Source: Patescibacteria group bacterium
GTDB lineage: Bacteria > Patescibacteriota > UBA1384 > XYA2-FULL-43-10 > 1-14-0-10-43-13
Reading direction: 5' to 3'
DNA: 64,000 bases
Assembly (NCBI GenBank): GCA_041666325.1
Contig: JBAYHC010000002.1
Span: 157,319 to 221,318 of the forward strand
The notes under the pieces were generated by a model. The model was not told the origin of the DNA. It worked only from the letters and a program-made list of their open reading frames with translations, and did no database searches. Positions 4,506-33,977 of this stretch are shown here, piece after piece. Position 1 is the stretch's first letter. Each line of letters begins with the position of its first letter. A program made the translations under genes and the position numbers.

Positions 4506-6440
4506 GTGATGGATATTTTCGGAAACTTTGGCGCCCTAAGGGGCGATCGAAAGAAGCGCAAGATTCCTCAAGGTGAAGAGAACGATTTTTCCTATTCTGA
4601 TGCAGTAATTTCAGGGATAACTAAGATAGAAGATAGAGCGATCTCTTCGTTAACACTGCCAGCAAGGACATTGTTGATAATGTTTTTTATCGTATTGCTA
4701 GCCAAAGTATTCTTTTTGCAGGTAGTGGAGGGTAAAAACCACCAGAAACTTGCTGAAGGAAACCGTATCAGACCAAGAGTCCTTGAGGCACCAAGAGGAT
4801 TAATTTCGGACAAAGATGGAGTTTGGCTTGCGCGCAATAAGGCTGATTTTGCTCTCTCGTTTTATCCCTCAGACTTGCCGAAGGCGAAGGCGGACAGAGC
4901 AGAAATTTTCAAGAAGCTTGCCGACGTCTCTGGTTTGGCCCCAGAGGAGATTCAAAAAATTGCCGAAGAGAAGGGAAACTATTTTCTTGATTCAGTTATT
5001 ATCAAGGACCATTTATCACATGATGAGGCGCTGCTATTGGAAGAAAGGACAGCTGATCTGCCGGGTGTGTTTATTGCGCATCGCGTGAGCCGAGAGTATG
5101 TTAGTCTTCCTGGAATCTCACATATCTTGGGATATACTGGCTCCGTTTCGGGTGCAGATCTAAAGGATCATCCTAACTATTTTCTTTCGGATTGGATTGG
5201 AAAGGCGGGAATAGAAAAGGAGTATGAGCAGTATTTGCGCGGAGTCCACGGGGTCGAACAGGTCGAGGTTGATTCGCGCGGAAATGTCGTGCGCGTTCTT
5301 GTCAAAGAGGGCAACATGGAGCCGAAGCCAGGGAATGATGTTTCCCTCTACCTGGACAGAGGATTGCAGTCAAAGGTTGCGCTCTCTCTGCAAGATGGCA
5401 TCAAGAAGGCGAAGGAGATCACCGGTAAGGAGGACATAAACTCAGGTGTGGCTGCCGTAATGGATGTTAGAAACGGCGGAATACTGGCAATGGTTTCTCT
5501 TCCCGACTATGATAATAATCTTTTTGCCACAAGAATATCGAATGATGATTACCAGCGATTGATTAATGATCCATCGCAACCCCTTTTCAACAGAGCAATA
5601 AAGGGCGAGTATCCGCCAGGATCAATCGTTAAGATTGTTATGGCTGCAGCGGGGCTGTCTGAAGGTGTTATTAACGAGGGGACATCTCTTGATACCCCAC
5701 CGGCAATTCAAATTGGAGACTACTCTTTCCCAGACTGGAAAGATCACGGCCTGACTGACGTCGAGCGCGCTATTGCTGAGTCAAATAACATATTCTTTTA
5801 TGCTATTGGCGGCGGATACGACAAGATAAGGGGAATCGGCATAGCAAAGATCAAAGAATATTGGCAGAAATTCGGTTTGGGAAAAACAACCGGGATTGAT
5901 ATTCCAGGGGAAGAAAACGGGCTGTTGCCGGATGGAGAGTGGAAACAAAAGGTCAAGAACGAGCCGTGGTATCTTGGTGACACTTATCATGTTTCAATTG
6001 GCCAGGGAGATTTACTGGTTACGCCTATTCAGATGCTCAGAGCGACTGCTGCCATAGCTAACGGTGGAAAGCTCCTTAATCCACGTTTCATAAAAACAAT
6101 AATAGGATTGGATGGCGAGGTTGTTAAAGAGTTTGGTCCTTCCGTGGAGAACGAGGCAGTCGTTTCCTCCCAGGTTGCAAGCACGGTTGCTCGCGGTATG
6201 CGAATGACGGTGACAGAAGGCTCTGCCAGGAGCTTGAATTCTTTGCCTGTAGCAGTCGCTGGCAAAACAGGCACTGCACAATTTTTCAATAACGAGAAGA
6301 CGCATGCCTGGTTTGAGGCTTTTGCTCCTTATGATGATCCAGAGATTGCCGTCATCGTTCTGATCGAGGGTGGCGGTGGGGGCAACGAAACCGCTGTGCC
6401 TGTTGCTAAGGACATCTTAGATTACTACTTTAGTAGATAA
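4506..6440 (+). CDS. mrdA: Penicillin-binding protein 2 (class B transpeptidase, elongasome)
   Basis: N-terminal TM plus transpeptidase motifs SxxK (GSIVK), SxN (ESNN) and KTG (KTGTAQ). Position after mreBCD supports the call. Confidence 0.85.
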   Translation: MMDIFGNFGALRGDRKKRKIPQGEENDFSYSDAVISGITKIEDRAISSLTLPARTLLIMFFIVLLAKVFFLQVVEGKNHQKLAEGNRIRPRVLEAPRGLISDKDGVWLARNKADFALSFYPSDLPKAKADRAEIFKKLADVSGLAPEEIQKIAEEKGNYFLDSVIIKDHLSHDEALLLEERTADLPGVFIAHRVSREYVSLPGISHILGYTGSVSGADLKDHPNYFLSDWIGKAGIEKEYEQYLRGVHGVEQVEVDSRGNVVRVLVKEGNMEPKPGNDVSLYLDRGLQSKVALSLQDGIKKAKEITGKEDINSGVAAVMDVRNGGILAMVSLPDYDNNLFATRISNDDYQRLINDPSQPLFNRAIKGEYPPGSIVKIVMAAAGLSEGVINEGTSLDTPPAIQIGDYSFPDWKDHGLTDVERAIAESNNIFFYAIGGGYDKIRGIGIAKIKEYWQKFGLGKTTGIDIPGEENGLLPDGEWKQKVKNEPWYLGDTYHVSIGQGDLLVTPIQMLRATAAIANGGKLLNPRFIKTIIGLDGEVVKEFGPSVENEAVVSSQVASTVARGMRMTVTEGSARSLNSLPVAVAGKTGTAQFFNNEKTHAWFEAFAPYDDPEIAVIVLIEGGGGGNETAVPVAKDILDYYFSR

Positions 6441-6541
6441 ACTGAAGGTTGACAAAAGCGCCCTCTTTTTGAGATACTCAGAAGTCGTAAAGTACTATTT
6501 TTAACAATTATTAAATATAATAACTAGTCAGTTTCTGAAGC

Positions 6542-7027
6542 TTGACGAAAACAAGAAAAACTTCGGGAGAAATAACCATGACCAATGAAATGACAGCCAC
6601 TGGGCTGGACCACCTAAAAAAACAATATGATGATGTTCATCAAAAGCTGAAGGATATTGCCGGACGAATCAAGGAAGCTAGAGATTTGGGCGATCTCTCG
6701 GAAAATGCCGAGTATCAAGAGGCTAAGAACGAGCAAGCTTTTTTGCTTGGGCGTGAAGCTGAGTTGGAGCAGAAAATTAAATCGGCAAAAGTTGTTGCCA
6801 AGTGCGACGATGGGGTTGTTGGTGTCGGTTGCCGTGTTAAGATCGAAGGCAACGGCAACACCATGACTTTCGAAATTGTTGGTCCTGATGAAGTGGATCC
6901 TCTCGCTGGCCGCATCTCTCCGGAATCACCCATCGGCTCAGCCATTCGCGGCCATCGTAGTGGAGAGACAGTTCAGGTTAAAACTCCCGGAGGAGTGACA
7001 GAATATCGGATTGTGGAGGTAAATTAA
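6542..7027 (+). CDS. greA: Transcription elongation factor GreA
   Basis: GreA signature LSENAEYQEAKNEQAFLLGREAELEQKI followed by a C-terminal FKBP-like domain. The start may be the Met at 6578. Confidence 0.85.
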   Translation: MTKTRKTSGEITMTNEMTATGLDHLKKQYDDVHQKLKDIAGRIKEARDLGDLSENAEYQEAKNEQAFLLGREAELEQKIKSAKVVAKCDDGVVGVGCRVKIEGNGNTMTFEIVGPDEVDPLAGRISPESPIGSAIRGHRSGETVQVKTPGGVTEYRIVEVN

Positions 7028-7050
7028 TTCATTTCGAATATGATCTCAGC

Positions 7051-7080
7051 AAAAGTCCCGCGTTCACGGGACTTTTGCTA
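7051..7080 (+). terminator. Intrinsic terminator after greA
   Basis: Hairpin AAAAGTCCCG-CGTTCA-CGGGACTTTT followed by TTTGC. Confidence 0.7.
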
Positions 7081-7101
7081 TTCGGTCATCTTGGATAATC
7101 G

Positions 7102-7906: not shown

Positions 7907-7914
7907 CGTGTGTG

Positions 7915-8850
7915 CTACAGCGTTCTGGCTGTCAGGACTGCGTATGGCTTCTGCGCCCTGACGTTGGTCAGCCGCCACTGATCGTTCCGGCGGTTGACTG
8001 TTACGATGTAGCTCGCCTTGGTGGCGCTGGCACCGCCAAGGATAGAGATCCAGCGGAAGTCTACCCGATACTTCCTGCCCTTCCAGAGGCAAGATGTCTC
8101 GATGGTAGGGGTGATGATTCCGGCCTCGTCGAGCGGAAGGTACGCCAGGTTGGCGCACCTCGTCGTCAGGCCGGGGTTTCCCTCGATGGCTCTGAGGCGA
8201 GCAAACTCCCTCTCGACGAAGGCCGCAGCCGGGTCCTCCTCTGCTCCGGCGTAGGGGTTCAGTCCGCGGTAGTCGTCCCCGATCAGGCTAGGATCGTGCC
8301 TGGGGAAGGGCGGAAGCGGAAAGCCACAGTGCTCGAGCGCCTCTTCGCGGCTGTCGACCTCACGGCCGATGCCCTCGAAAGCGACATTCCAGGACAGGGC
8401 ATTCATACCATAATATGGGATGGCCTCTGGTCTGACGTCGATGTCCCTCGCGGAGTTTATGATCTCCTTTTCCTTCCACTCGGGACAGTTCTTCTTCCTG
8501 TTGATGGTGTAGCGGTAGTGGCCGATCTCACGGCCGGTGGGGAAGCGGTAGATGAGGTGTGCGGCATTGCCGACTACTTCGACCTGGGTGTAATTCTCCA
8601 GGTTGGGCCATGCCTCGAAGATGGCCCAGACACGAGATTGCTCATCTGACCATTCTCCGGTGAAGGTTGGCGGCAGGGAGCCGCCTCGATAGTAGTGGAA
8701 GGTGCTGATGACCTTCTCTTCGTGCTCAGCGCATCGTTGCGACGCTTGCTCGATGTACGGCACTCCGATGCCCACTGCGATCATGCCGGCAAGCCCTGCG
8801 GCAATGAGTGTGGTCAATGCAGTTGCTGCTAGTCTTGTCAATCGTTCCAT
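7915..8850 (-). CDS. Hypothetical exported/membrane-anchored protein, high GC (cassette gene A). The ORF track extends to 8907; the likely start is the Met at 8850 (MERLTRL...)
   Basis: N-terminal hydrophobic segment (LAATALTTLIAAGLAGMIAVGIG), preceded by an AAGGAGAG RBS. GC about 62% versus about 45% for the flanking DNA. No family recognised. Confidence 0.5.
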   Translation of the reverse strand: MERLTRLAATALTTLIAAGLAGMIAVGIGVPYIEQASQRCAEHEEKVISTFHYYRGGSLPPTFTGEWSDEQSRVWAIFEAWPNLENYTQVEVVGNAAHLIYRFPTGREIGHYRYTINRKKNCPEWKEKEIINSARDIDVRPEAIPYYGMNALSWNVAFEGIGREVDSREEALEHCGFPLPPFPRHDPSLIGDDYRGLNPYAGAEEDPAAAFVEREFARLRAIEGNPGLTTRCANLAYLPLDEAGIITPTIETSCLWKGRKYRVDFRWISILGGASATKASYIVTVNRRNDQWRLTNVRAQKPYAVLTARTL

Positions 8851-8925
8851 CTTGCCTCTCCTTGCGTCGTGCACATTGGTGGGCTCGAGTGCCCAACCGA
8901 ATGACAAGCGCCAAACGATGGCTCC

Positions 8926-8943
8926 TGTTTGCGACGATCGAGA
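8926..8943 (-). promoter_or_regulatory. Conserved leader element (plus-strand text GTTTGCGACGATCGAG; minus-sense CTCGATCGTCGCAAAC) upstream of cassette gene A
   Basis: 16/17-nt identity with the element at 10038-10054 upstream of gene B. It sits inside ~130-nt leaders that are about 60-70% identical, while the two coding regions are unrelated. Confidence 0.55.
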
Positions 8944-8990
8944 TTGCTTAATCTAAACAATTATCGATTGTCACAAGAATGGTATTGTTA

Positions 8991-9019
8991 CTGGTCCGGC
9001 GGCGGGGCCGCCGGACCAG
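8991..9019 (-). repeat. GC-rich hairpin copy B (CTGGTCCGGCGGC / GCCGCCGGACCAG), 3' of the minus-strand gene at 9029
   Basis: Perfect 13-bp inverted repeat. It differs from copy A only by the A:T to G:C change at one stem position. Confidence 0.8.
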
Positions 9020-9028
9020 CTGGTATAC

Positions 9029-9970
9029 TTACTTTCGCCACGGCGGGTTGCCGAAGCGACCGAGCGGGATCTGTTTCGTCCCGGCCGTGCCGGTGGCGAT
9101 CAAGAAGTCCTCGGTGCATTCGAGCCTCTTGATGAGGCCGATCTTGGGGTTGATCCCCGTGAACATCTCGCCGAGCTTGTACTTATCCTCGAACGGCTGG
9201 TAGGCGCAGACCGCCCGAATAGTGCGGCCCTCCTCCTCGACAAGGAAGACCACGTCGTTGTGGCGGCGGTTGATTGCGAGGCAGCCGGTGCTGCCGGTGT
9301 TCTTGAACTGGGCGTCCTGGTACCGGGTGCTTTCGGACGGGCTGATGGTCTGGATGATCCCGTCCATCGTTGCGTAGGCGACTGCGCCGGTGCGCAGATC
9401 ATGGTCAAGTGCGGCCACCTCGGAGTTTTCGTTGAACCAGAGCGGCCTGCTCTGGTCCCTGGAGCAGACGGCCCAGCCGACCTTCGGCTTGGGCTCCATG
9501 ATCTGGTGCCAGGTCCTGACCCCGTACACCTGCTGATCGGGTGTGGACATGTAGGCAACCCCAACGAACTGCAGGTAGGCCTCCATGTAGGTGGCCGGCG
9601 TGAAGACCGGTGTTGACACGGCCTCCAGCCAGATGCGCATGCCCGGTTTGAGCTCCTTGAAGCGGAGGTAGTCCGGGTGGGTAGGCGGGATGCAGATCTT
9701 CCGCCAGCCGTCCTGCCCGTAGTTGACCTTGATAGTGATGTGCTTAGTGAAAGCGCGATCACTTCCCATCTGGTCCCCGTAGCTGATGGCGGTAACGACC
9801 CCGCCGTCAGCGAGCGGCTTGACGAACGCCTTCGCCTCCTCTTCGGCTCTCACCTCAGACCTTGCATTCAGGACGTCGTCCTGATGCCAGATCCAGGTTC
9901 CGACCCAGAGGGTCATGAGGATGAGGCAGAATCCAAGCGCGATCTTCAGTGACTTCTCGATCTCTGTCAT
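9029..9970 (-). CDS. Hypothetical membrane-anchored protein, high GC (cassette gene B). The ORF track extends to 10090; the likely start is the Met at 9970 (MTEIEKSLK...). It may be a Cys-dependent peptidase-like protein (STGCLAI)
   Basis: N-terminal TM (IALGFCLILMTLWVGTWIW) and a GGGAGAGAAAG RBS. The leader resembles that of gene A. A weak L,D-transpeptidase-like Cys motif is present, but the family is not established. Confidence 0.5.
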   Translation of the reverse strand: MTEIEKSLKIALGFCLILMTLWVGTWIWHQDDVLNARSEVRAEEEAKAFVKPLADGGVVTAISYGDQMGSDRAFTKHITIKVNYGQDGWRKICIPPTHPDYLRFKELKPGMRIWLEAVSTPVFTPATYMEAYLQFVGVAYMSTPDQQVYGVRTWHQIMEPKPKVGWAVCSRDQSRPLWFNENSEVAALDHDLRTGAVAYATMDGIIQTISPSESTRYQDAQFKNTGSTGCLAINRRHNDVVFLVEEEGRTIRAVCAYQPFEDKYKLGEMFTGINPKIGLIKRLECTEDFLIATGTAGTKQIPLGRFGNPPWRK

Positions 9971-10037
9971 CTGCTTTCTCTCCCAACGTCGCTGGTGGTG
10001 GCGGGTTCTTTTTCCCCAACCCAACTGCAAAGTACTC

Positions 10038-10054
10038 GTTTGCGACGATCGAGC
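10038..10054 (-). promoter_or_regulatory. Conserved leader element (CGTTTGCGACGATCGAG) upstream of cassette gene B
   Basis: Second copy of the element seen at 8926-8943. Confidence 0.55.
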
Positions 10055-10190
10055 TTGTCTGGTCTTGCCAAACAATTTCGATCGCCGCAACGTGTCGACT
10101 TTGAGAAAAATCTATTCTTTCTGATTGTTAAAGAACGTAATATCATATCATAATTTATTAAAATTGTCAATAGAGCCAAGGACAGACTGC

Positions 10191-17927: not shown

Positions 17928-18734
17928 TTGCGACCCACAAATATGTCAGAAAGCCCACAAACAAAAGAAAAATCAGCTTTGGCAGAGCCGGCTGTATCGC
18001 AAAACCAAAAGAAATCAACACAGGAAACACCTTCTCATAAGAGTAAGGATGTTGTAATTGAATTTGATCATGTTACGAAGCGTTACCCCGGTCAAATTAC
18101 AGCTGCCGACGATGTTTCTTTTAAGATTTGCTTGGGCGAGTTTATCTCAGTTGTCGGTCCGTCCGGTGCAGGGAAATCAACTCTTATTCGCCTCCTCACT
18201 TGTGAGGAGCGGCCAACAGGGGGACATATCTATGTTGCTGGTCGCGACGTGACGAAATTAAAGCCCAAAGAACTCCCATTTTATCGCCGCAAAGTAGGTG
18301 TAATTTTTCAGGATTTCAAGTTATTGCCAAGAAAAACTGTTTACGAAAACATTGCTTTTGCGCTGGAGGTTGCCGATGCTCCGAACTGGGAGATCAAAGA
18401 GAGTGTGCCCAAGATTATTGAGATCGTTGGTCTCTCGACTCGATCTAACGCTATGACGGAGGAGCTTTCTGGCGGCGAGAAACAGCGTGTTTCTATTGCG
18501 CGAGCACTGGTGCATAAGCCCAAACTTCTCATTGCTGATGAGCCAACTGGAAACTTGGACCCAGTTACCACATGGGAAATTATTGAGCTTCTTTTCAAGA
18601 TTAATCAACAGGGAACAATTGTTATCCTCGCCACACACGATCGCGAGGTTGTCGACTCACTCGAGAGAAGGGTTATGAGCATGAAGAATGGTGCCATAGT
18701 CTCCGATCAAGAGAAGGGCAAGTATATCCTCTAA
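17928..18734 (+). CDS. ftsE: Cell-division ABC transporter ATP-binding protein FtsE (with an N-terminal extension of about 45 aa)
   Basis: Walker A (GPSGAGKST), ABC signature (LSGGEKQR), Walker B (LLIADEPTGNLD). An ftsX gene follows directly. Confidence 0.85.
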   Translation: MRPTNMSESPQTKEKSALAEPAVSQNQKKSTQETPSHKSKDVVIEFDHVTKRYPGQITAADDVSFKICLGEFISVVGPSGAGKSTLIRLLTCEERPTGGHIYVAGRDVTKLKPKELPFYRRKVGVIFQDFKLLPRKTVYENIAFALEVADAPNWEIKESVPKIIEIVGLSTRSNAMTEELSGGEKQRVSIARALVHKPKLLIADEPTGNLDPVTTWEIIELLFKINQQGTIVILATHDREVVDSLERRVMSMKNGAIVSDQEKGKYIL

Positions 18735-18880
18735 ATCGAAGATTTTGAGGAAAGCTAGCAAATTTCTAATATCTAATCCCTAAACAAATCCCAATAACCA
18801 AATACTCAATTGACCAAAATTTTGAATATTAGAGCTTAGAAATTGTTTAGAAATTAGAAATTAGGATTTAGAAATTTCAC

Positions 18881-19792
18881 ATGAAACTTGTCTCATTCTT
18901 GCGCATAATCAAAACCGCCTTTGTCTCACTTTGGCGAAATCGTTGGCTTTCTTTGGCGGCAACACTAATTATGATATTGACGCTTATTACGATTTCTTTT
19001 TTCGTCAGTCTTTTATTCGTTACTAACAGGACGACAGAGACTTTGCGTGGCAAGGTTGATATGTCCGTGTATTTCGAGGACTCTACCTCGAAAGATCAAA
19101 TCTTTGCTACCCAGAATGTGCTTTTGTCCCGCTCCGATATAAAAAGTGTTGATTATGTTTCCAAAGAAAAAGCTCTTGAGCTTTGGCGTAAGCGCCACGA
19201 GGACAATGAGAAATTGAGGAATATTGTGACGGAAACTGATAATCCTCTGCCACGTAGTCTTGAGATAAAAACAGAAAATCCCGAGGATCTAGAAAAGATC
19301 AATGACCTGCTCAGCACCGCTGACTACAAACAGCTCATTCGGGAGGTTAGCTATAAGAAGAATAAAGATGTTATCAACCGTTTGGTTAAGATTACTTCTT
19401 TTATCAAGCTTGTCGGCTGGAATCTCTCCTCTGTTTTCGTTTTGATATCGATTCTAATAATCTACAATACAATCAGGCTGACCATTTTCGCTCGAAAAGA
19501 GGAGATTGAGATAATGAAGCTCGTCGGTGCATCGGACTGGTATGTTCGTGGCCCATTTGTGATAGAGGGGGTGTCATACGGCATAGTCGCTGCCGTTGTC
19601 TCAACTCTAGTTTTCTATTCAATTTTTAAACTCACTATACCGGATATCGAGCAATACCTAGGTTTGTCTAACCTTAACTCCTACTATCTTGGCTTGAATG
19701 CATGGTTTATAATATTATTGCAAGGCATCATTGGTTTAGTGCTAGGGGCGCTTTGCTCAGTGTTCGCAATACGTCGGCACTTGAAATACTAG
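18881..19792 (+). CDS. ftsX: Cell-division permease-like protein FtsX
   Basis: Four-TM FtsX topology with a large first extracellular loop. Position directly after ftsE supports the call. Confidence 0.8.
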   Translation: MKLVSFLRIIKTAFVSLWRNRWLSLAATLIMILTLITISFFVSLLFVTNRTTETLRGKVDMSVYFEDSTSKDQIFATQNVLLSRSDIKSVDYVSKEKALELWRKRHEDNEKLRNIVTETDNPLPRSLEIKTENPEDLEKINDLLSTADYKQLIREVSYKKNKDVINRLVKITSFIKLVGWNLSSVFVLISILIIYNTIRLTIFARKEEIEIMKLVGASDWYVRGPFVIEGVSYGIVAAVVSTLVFYSIFKLTIPDIEQYLGLSNLNSYYLGLNAWFIILLQGIIGLVLGALCSVFAIRRHLKY

Positions 19793-19881
19793 ATCAGTGT
19801 AGGCTGCGAGTGAATATGCGATAGCTTGTTTCTGGTTTTGCTGTTGGCATATTGGTTCAACTCTAACTACGACGAGGGGAC

Positions 19882-21135
19882 ATGTCTGGCCAAAGACATA
19901 AAATAATCATATTATCTAAGATAAAATGGAAACGGACAGTGTCCCTGCTTTTATTGTGGGCCATTCTCTTTTCTTTCGCTTCAACCGTTTCGGCTTCGAC
20001 TCTTGATGATCTAATCAAGCAACAGAAGCTAAATGCCTCTATAGCTGAATCAGCGCGGAAGCAAAGAGAGCAGAAGGAGAAGGACGCTGCGTTGGTTAAA
20101 AATCAGATTGAGTATGTCAGCGACAAGATAGATGAAGCGGCCGATGCTATTGAATCGACGCAGGGCCAAATCTCAAGTACCGAAGAAACAATTGATGAGC
20201 TCACCGATAAGATTAGGGCCGAAGAAGACAATCTTGCCAAGGAGAACGACAGGCTTAAGGGAGTAGTGTCTTCGTGGTACATGGAGGGCGAAGATGGTTT
20301 TTTGATCTCGATGATAAGCTCTGACAATTTATCCCAGATGGTGACGCAGCAACAGTACTACGATTCTATTAGGCAACAGATTGACATCTCCATGAATAAG
20401 ATCCAGCAGTTGAAGGACGAGTTGCAAAAGCAGAAGGGTGAGACGACGGGTCAGTATATGGTGCTGCAGGGACTCAAGAACAATCAGCTCAGCCAGAAAA
20501 ACAATCTTGAGTTGCAAAAGAGAATTAAAGATCGATTGCTGAACGACACAAAGGCGATGGTCTCCGAGCTAAGTGTTGAAGAAGAACAGGCAAGAGCTAG
20601 AGTCGCCGAGCTGCAGTCTAAGATTGACCAGATTAAGGCTGCGTCGGTTGGAACTGGGGGTGATGTTATCTCTACTTCAGCCGAGGGTTGGTATTTAAAG
20701 CAGGTTGATGACAGGTGGAGTGACTATAAGATGGGAAATTATGCAACAATTGGTCTTTATGGCTGTCTAATAACCTCTCTTGCCATGATCGCAAACTACT
20801 ATGGCTCAAACTATACACCTGTGACAGCAGTACAAAATTCCTCATTTGTTCGCGGCGGGAGATCGGATGGCGCATTGATACAAACGTCTATCGTTAGTGA
20901 TGGGGGATCTGTCCCAATTGATTGGGCCAAGGTTGACACAGAGCTAGCAGCAAGCCATCCAGTCGTTGTCGGCGTGGCTATGGGTGTCGATATGGGCAAC
21001 ACTTATGGTGTTTCTCATTTCGTTGTACTAAAGTCCAAGATGTCAGACGGCAGATACGCGATGCAGGATCCTCTTGGTGAAGGGCGAGGCTATCGCAAAT
21101 CGCAAATCAAGGCGATGAGAGTTGTCAGACCTTGA
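19882..21135 (+). CDS. Secreted coiled-coil protein with a C-terminal papain-like (C39-like / Peptidase_C39_2-type) cysteine peptidase domain; a PcsB/CwlO/RipC-style partner of FtsEX
   Basis: Signal peptide, then about 230 aa of heptad-rich coiled coil, then the C-terminal motifs YGCLITSLAMIANYYG (Cys), SHFVVL (His) and MQDP. The gene order ftsE-ftsX-this gene supports the role. Confidence 0.55.
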   Translation: MSGQRHKIIILSKIKWKRTVSLLLLWAILFSFASTVSASTLDDLIKQQKLNASIAESARKQREQKEKDAALVKNQIEYVSDKIDEAADAIESTQGQISSTEETIDELTDKIRAEEDNLAKENDRLKGVVSSWYMEGEDGFLISMISSDNLSQMVTQQQYYDSIRQQIDISMNKIQQLKDELQKQKGETTGQYMVLQGLKNNQLSQKNNLELQKRIKDRLLNDTKAMVSELSVEEEQARARVAELQSKIDQIKAASVGTGGDVISTSAEGWYLKQVDDRWSDYKMGNYATIGLYGCLITSLAMIANYYGSNYTPVTAVQNSSFVRGGRSDGALIQTSIVSDGGSVPIDWAKVDTELAASHPVVVGVAMGVDMGNTYGVSHFVVLKSKMSDGRYAMQDPLGEGRGYRKSQIKAMRVVRP

Positions 21136-21437
21136 ATATAGTCCAAGAGCCTGCTTAACAACTACGTCCGATAGTCATAACCGGCAAATTTTGTCTGCAA
21201 AGGCGCGAGTTGTTTGTCAAAGTAGTTTTGGCTACTCTTCCTCATAGCTCCCGCTTTTCGCCCCACAGAGGGGCCCATTGGTGGGGCTCAATCCGCCGGC
21301 TGGCGGATTGCTCGCTTCTGTCTTGGTGATCAGTTATTAAGCACACTTTTAGTTTTAGCTGCGGGCACAAACAGAAAAACCATCAATCGACAATCTAGAT
21401 TCTGGCTGAAAGCAGCCTAATAGGCTATAATAGTTTT

Positions 21438-22664
21438 GTGGAAAAAGATTTCAACTCAAAAATAAAGAAAAAACACTTTCTCAAATTGGTGACTCCTGTC
21501 TTGGTTTGTGCAATATTGGTTTACCTCTCTTTTGCGATTGGATATACCCAGGGCCAAAAAAACTTTGTTTCCAAGAATCAGGACAAGGTTGTCAATACCG
21601 AATCAGGTAAACCGAAAGACGTTAGTTTCTCAATCTTTTGGGAAACCTGGAACAAGCTGAGAGAAAAATCTGTTACCGAAACTGATGCTCAAAAGATGAT
21701 TGACGGATCAATCTCCGGAATGGTCTCATCGCTCGATGATCCTTACACCATGTTCATGAGCAAGGAAGAAAATAAGCGTTTCCGTGAGGATATTTCTGGC
21801 GAGTTCGGAGGAATCGGAGTCGAAATTGCACCCAAAGATGGGGTGCCGACCGTTGTGTCTGCGCTTGATGGTACTCCAGCACAGAAGGCTGGGATTAAGA
21901 CAGGTGATATCGTCGATGAAGTTGACGGCACTAAGACTTCAACAATCAGTTTTGAGGAAACAATAAACAAAATTCGTGGCCAAAAGGGCTCTGAGGTTAA
22001 ACTAAAAATCGTTCGTGCAGCAACTGCCGACCCAATTGAATACAGCGTTGTTAGAGATACCATTGTCGTTAAGAGCGTCCAATGGGAGAGGAAGAAGGAG
22101 GGTAGCAAGGACATCCTTTACATCAAGGTTAGACAATTCGGTGACGATACTAGCAAGGGTTTTTCTGATATCGCCAAGGAGGTTGCTGCATCAAAGCCTG
22201 ATGGGATAGTTGTCGATCTGCGCAACAACCCTGGCGGGTACTTGGTGACAGCCGTTGACTTGGCCAGTTACTTTATCGATGGCGGCGTGGTTGTTTCTGA
22301 GAAAGGCAAAAACGACAAAGTCAAAGAATACAAAACAACGACTAAGGCTCGCTTAAAAAATTATAAATTGGCCGTGCTGGTGAACAAAGGGTCTGCTTCT
22401 GCTTCGGAGATTTTTGCCGGAGCGGTTCAAGACAGGGGCTCAGGAAAAATATTCGGAGAAAAAACCTTTGGCAAAGGGAGTGTCCAGGAGCTAGTTGAGC
22501 TTTCCGATGGTTCTGCCTTAAAGGTTACGGTTGCAAAGTGGTTTACGCCAAAAGGGCGCCAGATAAATGAGCAGGGAATCTCTCCCGATGTTGAAGTAAG
22601 CGATCAGGAATCAACCGCGGATGACGAGCAGCTCATCAAGGCTCTTGAGTATGTGAGAAATTAA
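21438..22664 (+). CDS. ctpA: Carboxyl-terminal processing protease (S41 family, PDZ domain)
   Basis: PDZ segment (GIKTGDIVDEVDG), S41 catalytic region (GSASASEIFAGAVQD, K in TFGKGS). GTG start immediately downstream of a TATAAT box. Confidence 0.85.
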   Translation: MEKDFNSKIKKKHFLKLVTPVLVCAILVYLSFAIGYTQGQKNFVSKNQDKVVNTESGKPKDVSFSIFWETWNKLREKSVTETDAQKMIDGSISGMVSSLDDPYTMFMSKEENKRFREDISGEFGGIGVEIAPKDGVPTVVSALDGTPAQKAGIKTGDIVDEVDGTKTSTISFEETINKIRGQKGSEVKLKIVRAATADPIEYSVVRDTIVVKSVQWERKKEGSKDILYIKVRQFGDDTSKGFSDIAKEVAASKPDGIVVDLRNNPGGYLVTAVDLASYFIDGGVVVSEKGKNDKVKEYKTTTKARLKNYKLAVLVNKGSASASEIFAGAVQDRGSGKIFGEKTFGKGSVQELVELSDGSALKVTVAKWFTPKGRQINEQGISPDVEVSDQESTADDEQLIKALEYVRN

Positions 22665-22703: not shown

Positions 22704-24815
22704 GTGCAGACGACCAAATGGAGGGAGTTAGTGGCAGGGGATAATTCTACAAATACGACCCAAAGTTCTGCAACAAGCGTGCCGAATGCGGTTGCGGTTC
22801 CAGTAGCGCAACCAAATTCTGGAAGTCCTTGGGACGAGGATATTGACTTGCCCTCGGAGGAACCAGGGGTGAAGCCAACCGTGATTGGTTCTCTTGACGA
22901 TAGCGGTGACGAGAGCGCGCCAGTTCCTTTTTCTGTTCCAAAAGATATTGAGGAAAAGATTGGCCAGAAGGTTCCAGCAGAGAACTATATTGATCCTGAT
23001 CCCAGCAAAGTCGCTGCTGCAACATCCACCACTATTCCGGCGCAAATCCCAACAAACGAAAAAACTGTCGACACAATCAAGCCTAATGTCGGTCAAACTC
23101 AAGTCGCTAGCAACCCTTCAGCGCAAGTGGGGAGTCGGCCCAATTCTGGGCAAGTGCCAAGCCAAAATATTGTTGCAAACCTAAAAGCAAAAATTGAAAA
23201 CAAACCACAACACGATGAAAAGGCGCTCTCGCTAAATTCCTCTAATGATTATGTGGCACAAAAAATTGGTATAGATTCCGCCAGTCCACCCGCTGAAGCA
23301 GTGCCAGTTCCTGCCGTTGCCCCAAAGAAGACGTCCAGTTTTGAAATTGTTAGACTAATCCCCTTGTTTGTCTTGGTAATACCTCTATTCTTATTGCTAA
23401 TTTTGTCGCTGCTCACAGAAAAGGGTTTTTTGTCGATCGGAGTTGAGAAGATCTATGGTGCTGTCGGCTTAGAACGACTTTGGGGCGGTCTGTCCAAGGA
23501 TGCCGAGAGTTCACTTGTTAGAAGCGTGGTGGAAATGAGATCCCATCCCAACTTTAAGATAAAAGGGACAATGACTTTGTCGATTGATAAGTCTATAAAG
23601 TCGATAATTGTTTCGCCTCTCGTTGCAATCGGCCCGGATAAAAATATTGTCGCTGACTCGAATGTCTTAAATATTGTTACGGCTGCTATAACTCAGGGTA
23701 CTTCGAATGGTAGCTCTTCTGCCTACGATTACACCATAACAAATAGCTATCTTGACGAGACTTCAAGCGATGATCCCGGCTCTGGCTCTGATACTAGCTC
23801 CAGTTCTGTCTACGATGATGTTGCATCCACCGGTACCTCGGCATCGAGTTCGGCTGGTAGCTCAACAACCACGAAGAAACAAGAGGATTATCCTTCGTAC
23901 CAATATCAAGGATCGACAATCAAAGATGTCGACGTCAGTATTGCGTCATCGTTTGGGGAAAACGGAAACGAGAGCACACTGGAGGTCAAAAAAACTAGTG
24001 GAACCTATCCGGTCTTGCTGAAGAACAAAGAAGATAAATTATGGTTGAAGAGTGATCCCTATATCAAATATAGCAATCGAGTGAGCAATGATCAGTGGCT
24101 CGAGTACACCATTCCCTCACTCTTGGGCAAAAAAGTCCAGTCAGAGTTTTTCTCGCTCAAATCTGACGCCGGCCTATCGGTGCGTGGAATAAGGTTGGGC
24201 AATGAAAAGATCGGGGGTGAGAGGGCTTATCATTACAAGGTTTCCAGTTTTGAGATTGGTAACTCGCTATCATCTTTGGGCATAACTTCGGATATGGTCC
24301 AGAGTGTCTCGGGCGATATTTGGATCGGAGTTGAGGACAAACTGATCAAGCGGGCCGAACTGAAGATTCTGACCTCGCCTTCAACTGCAGTAACACAGAT
24401 CATTCTAAAGGCTGATTTTATTGACTACGACGTAGAAAATAGGTTAACGGCTCCCGAGGATAATTTGGTCATTAAAGCCACCGAGGATGATCTAAGTGTC
24501 AATACTGATGTGCGGCGCAAGGGTGATCTGGCAACAATTCGCGATGCGCTAGAGGAGTACAAAGTTGATAATGACAAGTATCCGGAAACCAACGGTATTG
24601 TCAAACTTAATAGTCCTGGTAATATCTTAGGCAGTAGACTCGTACCCAGTTATCTCGCTGCGTTGCCATCGGATCCGAAAGCTACGGAGGGTTGGTATTA
24701 TTCTTACAAGTCGGATGGGAAAACCTTTAGTCTTGGGTCGCGCCTAGAAAATGAGACAGATCCCGAGGGTCAGTCTGTTGGTTCGGTGTACCTTTATCTT
24801 TTGTATAATAAGTAA
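22704..24815 (+). CDS. Large type-II membrane protein (703 aa) with a low-complexity cytoplasmic N-terminus, one TM, a Ser/Thr-rich linker and a C-terminal GspG/type-IV-pilin-like (pseudopilin fold) domain. The probable real start is the GTG at 22731
   Basis: The C-terminus (DLATIRDALEEYKVDNDKYPETNG...LPSDPKATEGWYYSYKSDGKTFSLGS) closely parallels the GspG/PulG core (LxxYxxDNGxYPxxxxGL...LPxDPWGxxYxY...FSLGxDG). No prepilin G/FTLIE leader is present. The internal TM is IVRLIPLFVLVIPLFLLLILSLL. Confidence 0.5.
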   Translation: MQTTKWRELVAGDNSTNTTQSSATSVPNAVAVPVAQPNSGSPWDEDIDLPSEEPGVKPTVIGSLDDSGDESAPVPFSVPKDIEEKIGQKVPAENYIDPDPSKVAAATSTTIPAQIPTNEKTVDTIKPNVGQTQVASNPSAQVGSRPNSGQVPSQNIVANLKAKIENKPQHDEKALSLNSSNDYVAQKIGIDSASPPAEAVPVPAVAPKKTSSFEIVRLIPLFVLVIPLFLLLILSLLTEKGFLSIGVEKIYGAVGLERLWGGLSKDAESSLVRSVVEMRSHPNFKIKGTMTLSIDKSIKSIIVSPLVAIGPDKNIVADSNVLNIVTAAITQGTSNGSSSAYDYTITNSYLDETSSDDPGSGSDTSSSSVYDDVASTGTSASSSAGSSTTTKKQEDYPSYQYQGSTIKDVDVSIASSFGENGNESTLEVKKTSGTYPVLLKNKEDKLWLKSDPYIKYSNRVSNDQWLEYTIPSLLGKKVQSEFFSLKSDAGLSVRGIRLGNEKIGGERAYHYKVSSFEIGNSLSSLGITSDMVQSVSGDIWIGVEDKLIKRAELKILTSPSTAVTQIILKADFIDYDVENRLTAPEDNLVIKATEDDLSVNTDVRRKGDLATIRDALEEYKVDNDKYPETNGIVKLNSPGNILGSRLVPSYLAALPSDPKATEGWYYSYKSDGKTFSLGSRLENETDPEGQSVGSVYLYLLYNK

Positions 24816-24896: not shown

Positions 24897-25442
24897 ATGT
24901 GGATTGCAATTGGTGCTGTTGTCGCTGTCATTCTTATTGTCGCAGTAATGTACAATCGATTAGTATCGCTGAAAACAAGAACAGAGGAAGCTTGGAGCGA
25001 TATTGATGTTCAGCTCAAGCGCAGGTATGATTTGATTCCCAACCTGGTCGAGACTGTCAAAGGTTATGCAAAGCACGAAAAAGGACTCCTGGAAGAGGTC
25101 ACAAGGGCTAGGGCGGAGGCAATTAGCGCTAAGGGAATTGGGCCGCAGGCCAAGGCAGAGAATCACATAACGGAAGCTTTGCGTTCAGTTTTTGCTGTAG
25201 CTGAGAATTACCCTGACCTCAAGGCAAATCAGAATTTTGCGCAGTTGCAGTCTGAGATAACCGATACCGAGGACAAAATTCAGGCTGCTCGTCGTTTTTA
25301 CAATGGAAATGTGCGCGATCTCAATATTGCAATAAGGAGCCTTCCAACCAATATTATTGCTGGCCTCTTCGGATTTAAGGAAAGAGAGTTGTTTGAGCTG
25401 GAAAATGAAGCCGAGCGCAAGCCTGTCGAGGTTAAGTTCTAA
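24897..25442 (+). CDS. lemA: LemA family protein
   Basis: N-terminal TM plus the conserved LemA core (YNRLVSLKTRTEEAWSDIDVQLKRRYDLIPNLVETVKGYAKHE). Confidence 0.8.
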   Translation: MWIAIGAVVAVILIVAVMYNRLVSLKTRTEEAWSDIDVQLKRRYDLIPNLVETVKGYAKHEKGLLEEVTRARAEAISAKGIGPQAKAENHITEALRSVFAVAENYPDLKANQNFAQLQSEITDTEDKIQAARRFYNGNVRDLNIAIRSLPTNIIAGLFGFKERELFELENEAERKPVEVKF

Positions 25443-28703: not shown

Positions 28704-30815
<2,112 letters not shown>

Positions 30816-30847: not shown

Positions 30848-31303
30848 ATGGAGAATTTAGGACCAAAAGACATCAATGGTTTGTCTGAGAAGGACAGACA
30901 GATGCTGGAGCCTGGTGCGAAGGGCGAGAAGAAACCTGGTGCGGACGCAAAACCAGACAACGTCAGATCTCAGGACTCGCGCGAAGCAGGCGTTCTGCGC
31001 AAAATGGCACGCATAGCCAAGGATAAGGGTGAGATAGTTAAGCTCTTGGCGATGATTGCCAGCTATGAGCATGAGGTTCCGGGCAAGCGGCCGCAGCCTC
31101 CTATTCAGAAGACGGCTATTGTTCGGAATGAGTACGAAGGCCAAGTGGGCACTTCTCAGTCCAAAGCCATCCAGAGTGCTGAGTCTCGGCCGGTCAACAA
31201 ATCGCAAGCCTTTGAATTCGGCGGAAAACAGATAAATGTTTCGTCTCGAAGCCAGGAAAAAGGCACCAATCCACCCGGATCAGCGCAGGGAATCCCTGTT
31301 TAA
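30848..31303 (+). CDS. Hypothetical protein (151 aa), lysine/glutamate-rich
   Basis: ORF followed by a weak terminator-like hairpin at about 31333-31362. No family recognised. Confidence 0.4.
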   Translation: MENLGPKDINGLSEKDRQMLEPGAKGEKKPGADAKPDNVRSQDSREAGVLRKMARIAKDKGEIVKLLAMIASYEHEVPGKRPQPPIQKTAIVRNEYEGQVGTSQSKAIQSAESRPVNKSQAFEFGGKQINVSSRSQEKGTNPPGSAQGIPV

Positions 31304-31368
31304 TATTCAAAAAATGATGTCCTACACGTAAAATATGGTACATGGGCAAGGTCCCGGCCCAATTTTGT

Positions 31369-31397
31369 TGTTGCCCTCTTGACAAATATCCACGCCT
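31369..31397 (+). promoter_or_regulatory. Near-consensus sigma70 promoter (TTGACA-17-TGgTAGCAT) driving a non-coding GC-rich unit
   Basis: -35 TTGACA at 31369-31374, 17-nt spacer, extended -10 TGgTAGCAT ending at 31397. The predicted transcription start is about 31405. Confidence 0.6.
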
Positions 31398-31404
31398 GTG
31401 GTAG

Positions 31405-32550
31405 CATATTGGCCATATCGTCGATGACGTGAGCGACGTTCGGAAGGAAAGGACGGAGGAATGAAGATCCTCGCTGTTCGCTGACCGACACGCGGCGCGG
31501 GCGCTCCTGGCGAGCGCGGATGGTACTGACCTCTTGTAGGTCTGCGGCGAGGCCTTGCCTCACCCATCCGGTTTACGCCAGGCGGGCGTTCGTCCGCCCA
31601 GTTCAAAATCACTTCTGACGAGTTTCCGTCGGCCCAAACCGGCGGAAGGGTCCCGCAGGCAAACCCCTCCAGGGGGTCCGACCGCGACAACGCGGGACTC
31701 ATCACGATGACGGGAGGTACGCATGGTCACGACGCGCACCTCCGCCCAGCACAGCGTTAAGGCCGCTGGCTAGCCAGGCGGACGTCATCACCCACCCTTC
31801 GGTTCGGGAGGCGCGAATGAGGGTAACACCAAGAACGCGCGCCCGCATGGCGCAGGCATTCGGTGCCTGACCAGCCAGCGGGTCACATCATGTCGACTGC
31901 AAGACCGCACGACCAGGCTCCGGCTGATAACATCATGCCGGAACGCCAAAACAATGCGAATAGGAGCCGCTCGACTGAGCGCGGCGCGGACTTGATCCGG
32001 GCAGCCTTCCGCTCAGCGCCATTGAGCTCCTTGCCCCACATGGGGCCGCAATGCAGACGAGGGCCAGCGCCAAATCGGCCCTCACAAGTGCGTTTCAAGC
32101 AGTACCCACCAATAAAGCCCCGGTGAAACTCCGGGACCCTCAGCAAGCAGTGCCTACTAATGTCCGGGTGCAATTCCCGGCTCATGAGGTGCAAGATGAC
32201 TACATGCCAAGTGGCGACGGCGCGGGAAGAGGGTTCCCGTCTGCTATCGCCCCTGGGGTAGTCCACGGAGGGGTCCGGCGGGCGCGGGTTCGAAACCAGC
32301 GCAAAGCCGGCACAGACCGCCGACTAGGTCAAGTGCACAGGCCTAGACGGCCCAGAACGGGCAGCGCCCCTGCCCCGGCCCGCCAGCCTCAGGCTGGAAG
32401 ACAAAAAGGGGTCGGGCGCCTCACGGCGCGCCCACAGGACGCCGGCGCAAGCGCCGGCCGGATCACTCCGCGGGCGTGGGGAGAGCGGCTTTCGCCGCCT
32501 CCCCGCCCCAATCTCAGACGGCAGTCAACCACGACTGCCTGTTTTTTTTA
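31405..32550 (+). ncRNA. Candidate large structured non-coding RNA (about 1.15 kb, about 65% GC); class undetermined
   Basis: Bounded by a strong promoter and a canonical intrinsic terminator. It contains only short Arg/Pro-rich frames typical of GC-rich non-coding DNA, and has many local and long-range stems. A sub-segment (about 32108-32160) loosely resembles the RNase P CR-II/P11 region (GGTGAAACTCC...AGCAAG). No tmRNA or RNase P identity could be established by eye. Confidence 0.4.
32520..32550 (+). terminator. Intrinsic terminator (GGCAGT-CAACCACG-ACTGCC followed by TGTTTTTTTT)
   Basis: Perfect 6-bp GC stem followed by a U8 tract. Confidence 0.8.
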
Positions 32551-32563
32551 TTTAGAATCCATA

Positions 32564-32601
32564 TTATGCTGAAAACAGTCGATCGTGTATAATCAGCATA
32601 A
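32564..32601 (+). promoter_or_regulatory. Operator-like 9-bp inverted repeat (TTATGCTGA...TCAGCATAA) enclosing GTCGATCGTG and the TATAAT -10 of the PaaX-like gene
   Basis: Perfect IR seen in the sequence. It overlaps the TATAAT box at 32588-32593, about 35 nt upstream of the ATG. This is copy 1 of the motif TGCTGAAnAnnGTCGATCGTGyATA. Confidence 0.5.
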
Positions 32602-32631: not shown

Positions 32632-33228
32632 ATGACAAATATCAGAGGTAAGAAGATCATAGAATGGAGAGACGAGAACTACTATAGACGCAGAAGACCG
32701 ATGGCCCAAAAAGCAAGATCTACCGTTGAAGCAACGCTTGATCTGTTGTTGGCAGTGCCGGAGAGTTTGGTGGCAGTGTTTGAGCGAAGGTCAATCTACG
32801 AAGCAATAAGCACTTCTTCGGAAAAAGTGTTGACGGTTGAGAATATCAGTAAGATTTTTCATGGCCTGAAGCGCACTGGATACATCGAAACTACCAAGGA
32901 CAGTAGTGGCCTTGAGTCAGTCCAATTTACCAATAAAGCTAAGCTAAGAGTCATTGATGCAATTGCCGGTTGCCAGGGTTGGGATGAGAAATATCGTTTG
33001 GTTTCATTTGATATTCCTGAACGAATGAGGAACAATCGCGACAAGTTTCGTCGGGCAATCAAGAGGATCGGATTTAGGCAGATCCAAAAAAGCCTCTGGG
33101 TATGCAATCGGAACGTCGAAGAGCTGGTCGGCGTCGCATCGAACGAATACGGTGTTTCGACCTACACTGTCTGTGTCATTGCCGACAAGACAGATATCGA
33201 TAGCGCTATCAGCAAGATGTTCAAATAA
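32632..33228 (+). CDS. PaaX-like transcriptional regulator (N-terminal winged helix plus PaaX_C-type C-terminal domain)
   Basis: wHTH-like segment (ISKIFHGLKRTGYIE) and a C-terminal region colinear with E. coli PaaX (WDEKYRLVSFDIPERMRNNRDKFRRAIKRIGFRQIQKSLWV versus WDGKWLLLLSEGL...VKKQLIWQGFGALAPSLMA). AGGAGTGGG RBS. Confidence 0.6.
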   Translation: MTNIRGKKIIEWRDENYYRRRRPMAQKARSTVEATLDLLLAVPESLVAVFERRSIYEAISTSSEKVLTVENISKIFHGLKRTGYIETTKDSSGLESVQFTNKAKLRVIDAIAGCQGWDEKYRLVSFDIPERMRNNRDKFRRAIKRIGFRQIQKSLWVCNRNVEELVGVASNEYGVSTYTVCVIADKTDIDSAISKMFK

Positions 33229-33259
33229 GGGTGGATATATTTTTTGAATGAAGAATCCT

Positions 33260-33287
33260 CTGCTGAATATCGTCGATCGTGCATAGG
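33260..33287 (+). promoter_or_regulatory. Second copy of the motif (CTGCTGAATATCGTCGATCGTGCATAGG), downstream of the PaaX-like gene and upstream of the second GC-rich unit
   Basis: 20 of 23 positions identical to copy 1 at 32569-32595. Confidence 0.45.
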
Positions 33288-33386
33288 CATAGGAAGATAT
33301 GAAGACGCGGTGGCGGGAAACATTTTTGTGGATAAATATTTAATTCAGGTATTGCAATTGCCGGAAAGTCTGCTAACATAGCATTA

Positions 33387-33765
33387 AATCTGGCAGGGCC
33401 AGCACTATCCAGTCCGGAGTTTACTCCTGTAAAGGTCGAGGACTGGAATCGGCTCTGTTGGGTTCGAGTCAGTGGTTGGCACCCCTCTGCGGGGTCGCAG
33501 CGCCGCTGGCTCTAGGAGAACACCATTGCCACTCACTCTCCGCCGGCCGTCGTGGTCGGCAACAGCAACAAGCTGATCGATGCTGCGACCCGGAACGACC
33601 TGGGCGCGCACGCCAAGCAGGAGTCCCTGACGGGCTGACACATCACCAACAACCACAGCCATAAGGGGAACGAAGGGGTCATTGACCCGAGTTGATGCCA
33701 CCGGGGCATCGACATCGACATGCGGGAGCATGCACCCACCCGGGGTGTGTGCCCCCGCTCTTTTT
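33387..33765 (+). ncRNA. Second candidate structured non-coding RNA (about 380 nt, GC-rich); class undetermined
   Basis: Candidate promoter TTGCAA-16-TAACAT (33353-33380). Downstream hairpin CGGGG-TGTGTGC-CCCCG followed by CTCTTTTT at about 33741-33765. No credible ORF. Contains a T-loop-like GGGTTCGAGTC sequence, but no tRNA fold could be built around it. Confidence 0.3.
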
Positions 33766-33977
33766 GTATCCAGGGTGCAAGCAGCAATATGAAGGGCGAG
33801 AGCAAGGGGATCCTTTGCGCGAATTCGTTCGAATCAATGTCGAAGGATTCAGGATGACAGGGCGGCAGGATGGCGGGAAAGAGGAGCGTCCTTGAATCCG
33901 GAGTCTGGAAGTGGTAAGCTGAGGCCATAGTTCTTAAAGTTTGTAAAGTTCTTAAAGTTGAAATGTAAATTTCTATA

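Follow-up and report, generated by a model that had tools for sequence, protein, structure and literature searches.

A Peptidase_C39_2 protein encoded next to ftsEX in Patescibacteria is a predicted FtsEX-activated cell-wall hydrolase

Introduction

Which enzyme is controlled by FtsEX in Patescibacteria? Among ABC (ATP-binding cassette) transporter-like machines that perform mechanical work across the membrane and so trigger wall cleavage, FtsEX is the best understood. The question is raised by a gene located directly downstream of ftsE and ftsX in a 64-kilobase (kb) stretch of contig JBAYHC010000002.1 from an uncultured, ultrasmall Patescibacteria group bacterium, hereafter the window. The gene, an open reading frame (ORF) of 417 codons at positions 19882 to 21135 of the + strand, encodes a coiled coil followed by a Peptidase_C39_2 domain. 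A divisome hydrolase of the PcsB/CwlO/RipC type with a different catalytic module had been proposed from the sequence (the original prediction). Our analysis favours this proposal: with a probability of about 0.7, the product is an extracytoplasmic FtsEX effector, namely a PcsB/CwlO/RipC-type hydrolase carrying another catalytic cassette.

The structures of the FtsEX-EnvC and FtsEX-RipC systems have been characterised (PMC11627006, PMC10694151, PMC10214136). CwlO and RipC combine a coiled coil with an NlpC/P60 domain and are activated directly by FtsEX, and a 2024 review of FtsEX partners names proteins with LytM, CHAP or NlpC/P60 modules only, never C39 (PMC11627006). In agreement with the claim that the combination was unreported, our literature searches on FtsEX or FtsX with C39, and on FtsEX in Patescibacteria, found no description of it, most subscription-journal papers lying outside their coverage. 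Likewise, we found no report in which a protein of the Peptidase_C39_2 family (PF13529) both carries an EnvC-type coiled coil and is encoded beside ftsEX.

Results

The C-terminal domain belongs to the Peptidase_C39_2 family

The catalytic domain extends from residue 262 to residue 417 (20665 to 21132, + strand; 156 residues). In Pfam, residues 277 to 396 were assigned to PF13529 (cut-off 24), the whole protein scoring 27.8 bits and the isolated domain 33.2 bits, and 24 of 24 aligned relatives matched the same family (best E-value 4.5e-12). When a profile of the domain was compared with all PDB sequences, the top matches were 9jdd, 9jg8 and 3erv, that is, only 'C39-like' proteins; 9jdd is BtaeB, a type VI secretion system (T6SS) effector of Bacteroides. 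Used as a single-sequence query, the domain had no match in the PDB. The profiles of CHAP (PF05257) and NlpC/P60 (PF00877) matched none of the 24 members, even at E <= 1. Furthermore, hhalign gave a probability of 0.2% for the pairing of the domain with the CHAP module of sister proteins (described below), and the PcsB equivalog NF046104 reached 10.4 bits against a cut-off of 450. Pfam, the relatives and the PDB profile search agree that the C-terminus fits Peptidase_C39_2 and not CHAP or NlpC/P60, as had been proposed; no domain search assigned it to either of these two families. The presence of a C-terminal catalytic domain was likewise borne out, its start being at residue 262 and not at residue 250.

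The AlphaFold model of the domain, built on the alignment, has a predicted local distance difference test (pLDDT) value of 95.2 and is closest in fold to the pseudomurein endoisopeptidase PeiR and to C39 domains. It has the arrangement of a papain-like enzyme, with the Cys nucleophile at the N-terminus of a helix and the His downstream. Since Peptidase_C39_2, CHAP and NlpC/P60 all have papain-like folds, the catalytic module differs from the other two in family and not in chemistry.

The bacteriocin-type Peptidase_C39 family (PF03412) was also considered. Its scores, 19.7 bits with the whole protein and 22.2 bits with the isolated domain (cut-off 22), are at or below threshold, and the match covers only about 20 residues around the Cys. 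A true bacteriocin-type domain was rejected on this ground, and on the ground that the domain is C-terminal on a coiled-coil protein and not fused to an exporter.

The active site is essentially invariant and the domain has relatives in wall lysis

Three motifs had been singled out in the original prediction, and all were found: YGCLITSLAMIANYYG at residues 293 to 308, SHFVVL at residues 378 to 383 and MQDP at residues 394 to 397. They hold three of the four predicted active-site residues. Cys295 (codon 20764 to 20766, + strand), the predicted nucleophile, is a Cys in 179 of 179 aligned relatives and opens the helix 295-306 of the AlphaFold model, as in papain-like enzymes. The predicted general base, His379 (21016 to 21018, + strand), and the predicted third member of the triad, Asp396 (21067 to 21069, + strand), are each conserved in 180 of 181 relatives. 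Upstream of the Cys, Gln274 (20701 to 20703, + strand), the predicted oxyanion-hole residue, is a Gln in all 177 relatives that have a residue there. The four residues are invariant in the close family, and of 181 cluster representatives about 180 retain them. The Cys/His dyad expected of such an enzyme is thus present and essentially invariant, together with the Asp and the upstream Gln. Because the catalytic residues are invariant, the protein is better explained as a direct hydrolase than as an EnvC-type activator.

Several comparisons link the domain to lysis of the cell wall. The PHROG family 10051, named 'endolysin', was matched by 18 of 24 members, and the best fold matches in BFVD carried the names of phi29-type morphogenesis or wall hydrolases, tail tape measure protein, peptidase, and lysozyme or endolysin. 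In a survey of phage lysins, Peptidase_C39_2 was listed as an enzymatically active domain, and only in phages of Gram-positive hosts (PMC8223927). In Chloroflexota, a C39_2 domain of the same subfamily is found at the N-terminus of proteins that lack the coiled coil and carry a bacterial SH3_3 domain. The SH3_3 domain is associated with cell-wall binding. At four Chloroflexota loci (L046, L049, L050 and L052 in our survey), a gene for an S41 (PDZ) protease lies directly 3′ of the C39_2-SH3_3 gene, for instance 5902-7083 and 7002-8678 in L049. Outside Patescibacteria, C39_2 and Ctp are here paired a second time, independently. Taken with the active site, these relationships suggest that the C39_2 domain would hydrolyse peptidoglycan; the bond cut is predicted in the Discussion.

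The coiled coil is of the type found in FtsEX partners

Residues 1 to 39 (19882 to 19998, + strand), MSGQRHKIIILSKIKWKRTVSLLLLWAILFSFASTVSAS, comprise a basic part, a hydrophobic stretch and then VSA followed by S. Judged by inspection alone, this N-terminus looks like a signal peptide or a membrane anchor. In the AlphaFold model, residues 3 to 33 form a helix which is followed by a low-confidence stretch.

The full-length AlphaFold model (pLDDT 86.7) consists of this N-terminal helix, a two-helix hairpin with a short tip, a GGD hinge and the globular domain. The hairpin is an antiparallel coiled coil of the EnvC/PcsB type that occupies residues 41 to 258 (20002 to 20655, + strand), with helices at 41-136 and 150-258; this agrees with the coiled coil of the original prediction, except that it measures about 218 residues and not about 230. 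Foldseek searches with the full-length model retrieved EnvC from the V. cholerae FtsEX-EnvC complex, PcsB (4cgk), EnvC bound to an FtsX domain, and the coiled coil of RipA (TMt 0.78).

The sequence of the coiled coil was then compared with 177,635 PDB sequences by means of a profile that included the sister proteins with M23 and CHAP domains. The three best matches were all EnvC chains of FtsEX-EnvC complexes: E. coli 8hd0 (8.2e-09) and 6tpi (1.1e-08), and V. cholerae 8tzk (5.7e-06). These alignments span the entire length of the coiled coil, and RipC (8idc) followed at 0.04. In Pfam, CC_PcsB was the family that the coiled coil matched most often (9 of 20 members). The NCBIfam EnvC equivalog NF008644 gave 24.3 bits against a cut-off of 270, through the coiled coil only, the C-terminal domain not being LytM. 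The profile matches indicate a coiled coil of the FtsEX-partner type.

The tip of the hairpin, at residues ~122-168 (20245 to 20385, + strand; SSWYMEG...NLS...QQYYDSIRQQ), is the best-conserved part of the coiled coil. S131, Y133, M134, G136, S151, Y159, S162, Q165 and Q166 are invariant or nearly so, and the motif is kept in the M23 and CHAP sister proteins. In the profile alignment, the tip aligns with residues ~114-160 of EnvC, which engage the two extracellular domains (ECDs) of FtsX (PMC11627006). This register suggests that the tip is the segment that would dock on the FtsX ECD.

The coiled coil and the C39-like domain are joined by GGD at residues 259 to 261 (20656 to 20664). The Gly-Gly pair is nearly invariant in the close family. 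Since only 82 of the 139 proteins in the wider family have it, G259-G260 is more likely a hinge than a double-glycine site, and a general self-cleavage site was rejected for the same reason.

Linkage to ftsEX and ctp is conserved across genomes

The four genes of the original prediction were found at the predicted coordinates, all on the + strand. The ATPase gene ftsE (17928 to 18734; 268 residues) matched the FtsE equivalog TIGR02673 with 272.3 bits (cut-off 264.85) and Pfam ABC_tran. It is followed by ftsX (18881 to 19792; 303 residues), which encodes the membrane subunit with an ECD at residues ~59-146, and which matched NF038347 FtsX_Gpos (232.4 bits, cut-off 225), Pfam FtsX_ECD (63.2 bits) and Pfam FtsX (61.4 bits). 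Downstream of the hydrolase gene lies ctp (21438 to 22664; 408 residues), encoding a C-terminal processing serine protease of family S41 with an N-terminal membrane anchor. Its product scored 335 bits with TIGR00225 (cut-off 218.6) and contains the Pfam domains CtpB_N-like, PDZ and Peptidase_S41.

The product of the hydrolase gene is 100% identical to a GenBank entry (P0001) named 'C39 family peptidase [Patescibacteria group bacterium]'. In the public call (assembly GCA_041659665.1), the gene starts 19 codons later, from codon 20, which gives a protein of 398 residues. Family members bear the name 'C39 family peptidase' in the databases, and some, from JGI, 'peptidoglycan hydrolase CwlO-like protein'.

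The neighbourhood was surveyed by tblastn and ORF analysis at 64 loci, with one genome per species. A protein of about 400 residues with a coiled coil and a C39 domain is encoded at 34 related loci, almost all from Patescibacteria by title (Berkelbacteria, Andersenbacteria, Paceibacterota and others). In 27 of the 34, its gene comes directly after ftsE-ftsX, with ftsE conserved directly upstream of ftsX; one locus is cut by a contig end. The ctp gene immediately follows the hydrolase gene at 15 C39-type loci, and it does so at each of the five loci with an M23 or CHAP variant. Many loci share the longer order secA-gpmI-ftsE-ftsX-hydrolase-ctp-(703-residue protein)-lemA. Dozens of genomes thus preserve the linkage to ftsEX, and usually that to ctp as well.

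When 1.84 billion cluster representatives were searched exhaustively with HMMER, 1129 proteins matched the domain at E <= 1e-10. Among the proteins retrieved in this analysis, 143 of 350 to 480 residues carry the C39_2 domain, and 139 of these also match the coiled-coil profile. Given these numbers, the coiled-coil C39_2 proteins are no isolated fusion and form a large family. Some giant proteins of 2900 to 5200 residues (P0075, P0083, P0090, P0104, P0110, P0129 and P0177) also contain a domain of the same subfamily, in two to four copies.

The gene for the 703-residue protein (22704 to 24815) stands directly after ctp and before lemA (24897 to 25442) in most related loci. The protein has a low-complexity N-terminal half rich in Ser, Thr and Pro, one hydrophobic segment, and a C-terminal pseudopilin domain resembling GspG of the type II secretion system (T2SSG, 24.5 bits). 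Because its position between ctp and lemA is conserved, it may be part of the same envelope module.

The gap between the hydrolase gene and ctp (21136 to 21437) is 302 nucleotides long in the window, versus only about 60 nucleotides in the closest relative (L001). It contains inverted repeats rich in guanine and cytosine (GC), ccccac...gtgggg and aatccgccggctggcggatt, and could be a terminator, an attenuator or a small insertion. A scan of the operon for promoters and terminators gave no signal beyond chance.

Sister genomes carry M23 or CHAP in the place of C39_2

Five loci keep a homologous coiled coil, including the tip motif, between ftsX and ctp, and have no C39 domain. Two of them (L022 and L030) encode the coiled coil with Peptidase_M23 (93 and 84 bits), the HxxxD and HxH motifs of L022 being intact; the other three (L024, L026 and L029) encode it with CHAP (about 64 bits). 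When FtsX sequences were placed on a neighbour-joining tree, both M23 genomes belonged to the clade that lies nearest the window, L022 being sister to the C39-type locus L025, and the CHAP genomes formed a single clade embedded among those with C39. The coiled-coil profile, used alone in a database search, gave, among the matches listed, six proteins, five with M23 and one with CHAP, a figure that is not a census. The M23 variant of L030 (5914 to 7092) matched the Peptidase_M23 profile in two pieces of swapped order, the HxH end (profile positions 59-96) at residues 260 to 298 preceding the HxxxD part near the C-terminus; this suggests either a circular permutation or an assembly artefact.

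Because M23 or CHAP domains fill the same slot in sister genomes, C39_2 appears interchangeable with peptidoglycan hydrolase domains. This exchange is the strongest argument for the function of the C39_2 domain.

Other features of the window

ARAGORN found no tRNA gene in the window, and no Rfam family reached its gathering score there. Two GC-rich stretches (31300 to 32600 and 33250 to 33950; ~53% against a background of ~45%) have no convincing ORF. They lie between ligA (28725 to 30815) and gatC/gatA (33978 onwards) and flank an ORF of 198 codons at 32632 to 33228. Neither stretch contained a tRNA or a tandem repeat, and Rfam gave no match with the threshold relaxed to E <= 0.1. A 2-kb block at 8001 to 10000 has a GC content of 60%, much higher than in the remainder of the window. 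Long ORFs overlap there on the two strands (7912-8649 on the + strand, 7915-8907 and 9029-10090 on the − strand), and the block may be a structured element or of foreign origin.

Discussion

A model for the action of the protein can be proposed by analogy with FtsEX-EnvC and FtsEX-RipC. The N-terminal hydrophobic segment would export or anchor the protein, and the tip of the coiled coil would dock on the ECDs of the FtsX dimer. Binding and hydrolysis of ATP by FtsE would move the FtsX domains and strain the coiled coil, which would free or re-position the C-terminal domain. The C39_2 domain would then most likely cut septal peptidoglycan at a peptide or isopeptide bond, either in the stem peptides or in the cross-links, so that the daughter cells could separate. 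The S41 protease most likely would trim or degrade the hydrolase and limit its activity. Such a limiting role of Ctp is probable by comparison with P. aeruginosa, where CtpA degrades several cell-wall hydrolases (PMC6050968, PMC8764530).

Several observations weigh against the assignment of the protein as an FtsEX-activated peptidoglycan hydrolase, or limit its reach. Our literature searches found no biochemical evidence of peptidoglycan cleavage by any PF13529 member, and the score of the whole protein with PF13529 exceeds the cut-off by only 3.8 bits. The matches of the coiled coil include a large compositional-bias term. Generic coiled coils (Smc, Tc toxins, chemoreceptors) score similarly in Foldseek, so that shape alone is not specific. 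The placement of the coiled coil relative to the catalytic domain is uncertain in the full-length model (predicted template modelling score, pTM, 0.48), and for this reason the model does not inform on autoinhibition. Six C39-type loci (L014, L021, L023, L028, L033 and L036) have no ftsEX within 6 kb, and the FtsX tree is without support values.

The first alternative is that the protein is a protease tethered to the divisome, which would process a secreted or surface protein or a propeptide, for instance a pilin-like or envelope protein such as the 703-residue neighbour. The fold search cannot separate PeiR from PCAT1, and the literature searches found no PF13529 enzyme with a measured activity, both of which leave room for protein substrates. 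We nevertheless consider this alternative improbable. The PF03412 match is short and marginal, the domain is linked to phage endolysins and SH3_3 fusions, and the slot is filled in sister genomes by M23 or CHAP, which are established peptidoglycan hydrolase domains. Moreover, among the known FtsEX partners none processes proteins (PMC11627006).

An EnvC-like activator, whose C-terminal domain would switch on a separate amidase and cut nothing itself, would account for a coiled coil that is nearest to EnvC in sequence and for NCBIfam EnvC being the best match of the whole protein, even though this match is far below threshold. The activator domains, such as the LytM domain of EnvC, are however devoid of catalytic residues (PMC11627006), whereas Gln, Cys, His and Asp are kept here almost throughout the family. 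The M23 variant of L022 also retains its metal ligands, and no amidase gene is found in the conserved neighbourhood. An activator of this kind is accordingly given little credence.

Still less probable is an offensive lysin that would open the wall of a host cell instead of the septum of the bacterium itself. The idea draws on the life-style of cultivated Patescibacteria, described as epibionts and thought to live attached to host cells, on the relationship of the C39_2 domain to phage lysin domains and to the T6SS effector 9jdd, and on the giant proteins with several C39_2 copies. It is difficult to reconcile with a gene that sits in the housekeeping block secA-gpmI-ftsE-ftsX-X-ctp in many genomes, with a coiled coil of the FtsX-binding type, and with the lack of secretion-system or toxin-immunity genes adjoining the hydrolase gene. 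Finally, an ordinary PcsB/CwlO orthologue with a diverged CHAP or NlpC/P60 domain mislabelled as C39-like, which might be suspected from the shared papain-like fold and the 'CwlO-like' names from JGI, is effectively excluded by the profile searches (no match in 24 members), the hhalign comparison and the fold comparison.

Among the known systems, PcsB of S. pneumoniae (coiled coil and CHAP, FtsEX-dependent) is a secreted hydrolase of about 400 residues in which an FtsX-binding coiled coil precedes a Cys-His domain of papain fold, in an organism with a Gram-positive-type FtsX; the present protein is predicted to be of the same build. The protein described here differs from it in having Peptidase_C39_2 instead of CHAP, and a coiled coil modelled as a simple two-helix hairpin instead of the five helices of PcsB (PMC11627006). 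With CwlO of B. subtilis and RipC of Mycobacterium and Corynebacterium it shares the succession of two-helix hairpin, linker and cysteine peptidase and the predicted direct hydrolase activity; in contrast to these proteins, it has no NlpC/P60 signature, and its GGD linker replaces the 52-residue proline-rich linker of RipC (PMC11627006). EnvC of E. coli, P. aeruginosa and V. cholerae is the closest relative of the coiled coil in sequence, with the FtsX-binding tip in register and an ftsEX-linked gene, but its LytM domain is catalytically dead and activates amidases, whereas the domain found here has a papain-like fold with invariant catalytic residues.

The relatives of the catalytic domain occur in other contexts. 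The pseudomurein endoisopeptidases PeiR, PeiW and PeiP (8z4h; 18% identity) act on archaeal pseudomurein and have neither a coiled coil nor a link to FtsEX. Other PF13529 proteins, such as the B. anthracis 'putative C39-like peptidase' (3erv), the lysin domains of Gram-positive phages and the PHROG 10051 endolysins, either have no partner domain or are joined to modules of phage or wall-binding type. The C39 domains of the PCAT/ComA type (PF03412) are cytoplasmic, N-terminal on an ABC exporter, and cleave double-glycine leader peptides, whereas the present domain is predicted to be extracytoplasmic and is C-terminal on a coiled coil.

What is familiar here is the FtsEX-hydrolase logic; what is new is the catalytic cassette, with clear evidence of cassette exchange and a function that is predicted. 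A broader proposal, that Peptidase_C39_2 is the main and possibly the ancestral effector module of FtsEX over a large part of Patescibacteria, and that the coiled coil is a fixed adaptor on which C39_2, M23 and CHAP cassettes are swapped, has in our estimation an even chance of being correct. On this proposal, the poorly characterised family PF13529 would for the first time be given a role in physiology, that of a peptidase acting on septal peptidoglycan, and the bond cut could differ from that of the CHAP or NlpC/P60 partners. If cassettes are indeed swapped on a fixed adaptor, activation by FtsEX would be independent of the fold of the domain that is released, and the natural exchange of C39_2, M23 and CHAP on a single type of coiled coil would make the activation mechanism a modular one.

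If the assignment of the protein as an FtsEX-activated hydrolase is true, C39_2 would be a fourth FtsEX partner module, used in a bacterial branch that is very large and has almost no cultured members. Peptidase_C39_2, a domain found in phage lysins as well, would acquire a concrete function, and Patescibacteria, of whose cell biology little is known, would have a candidate for an essential division enzyme.

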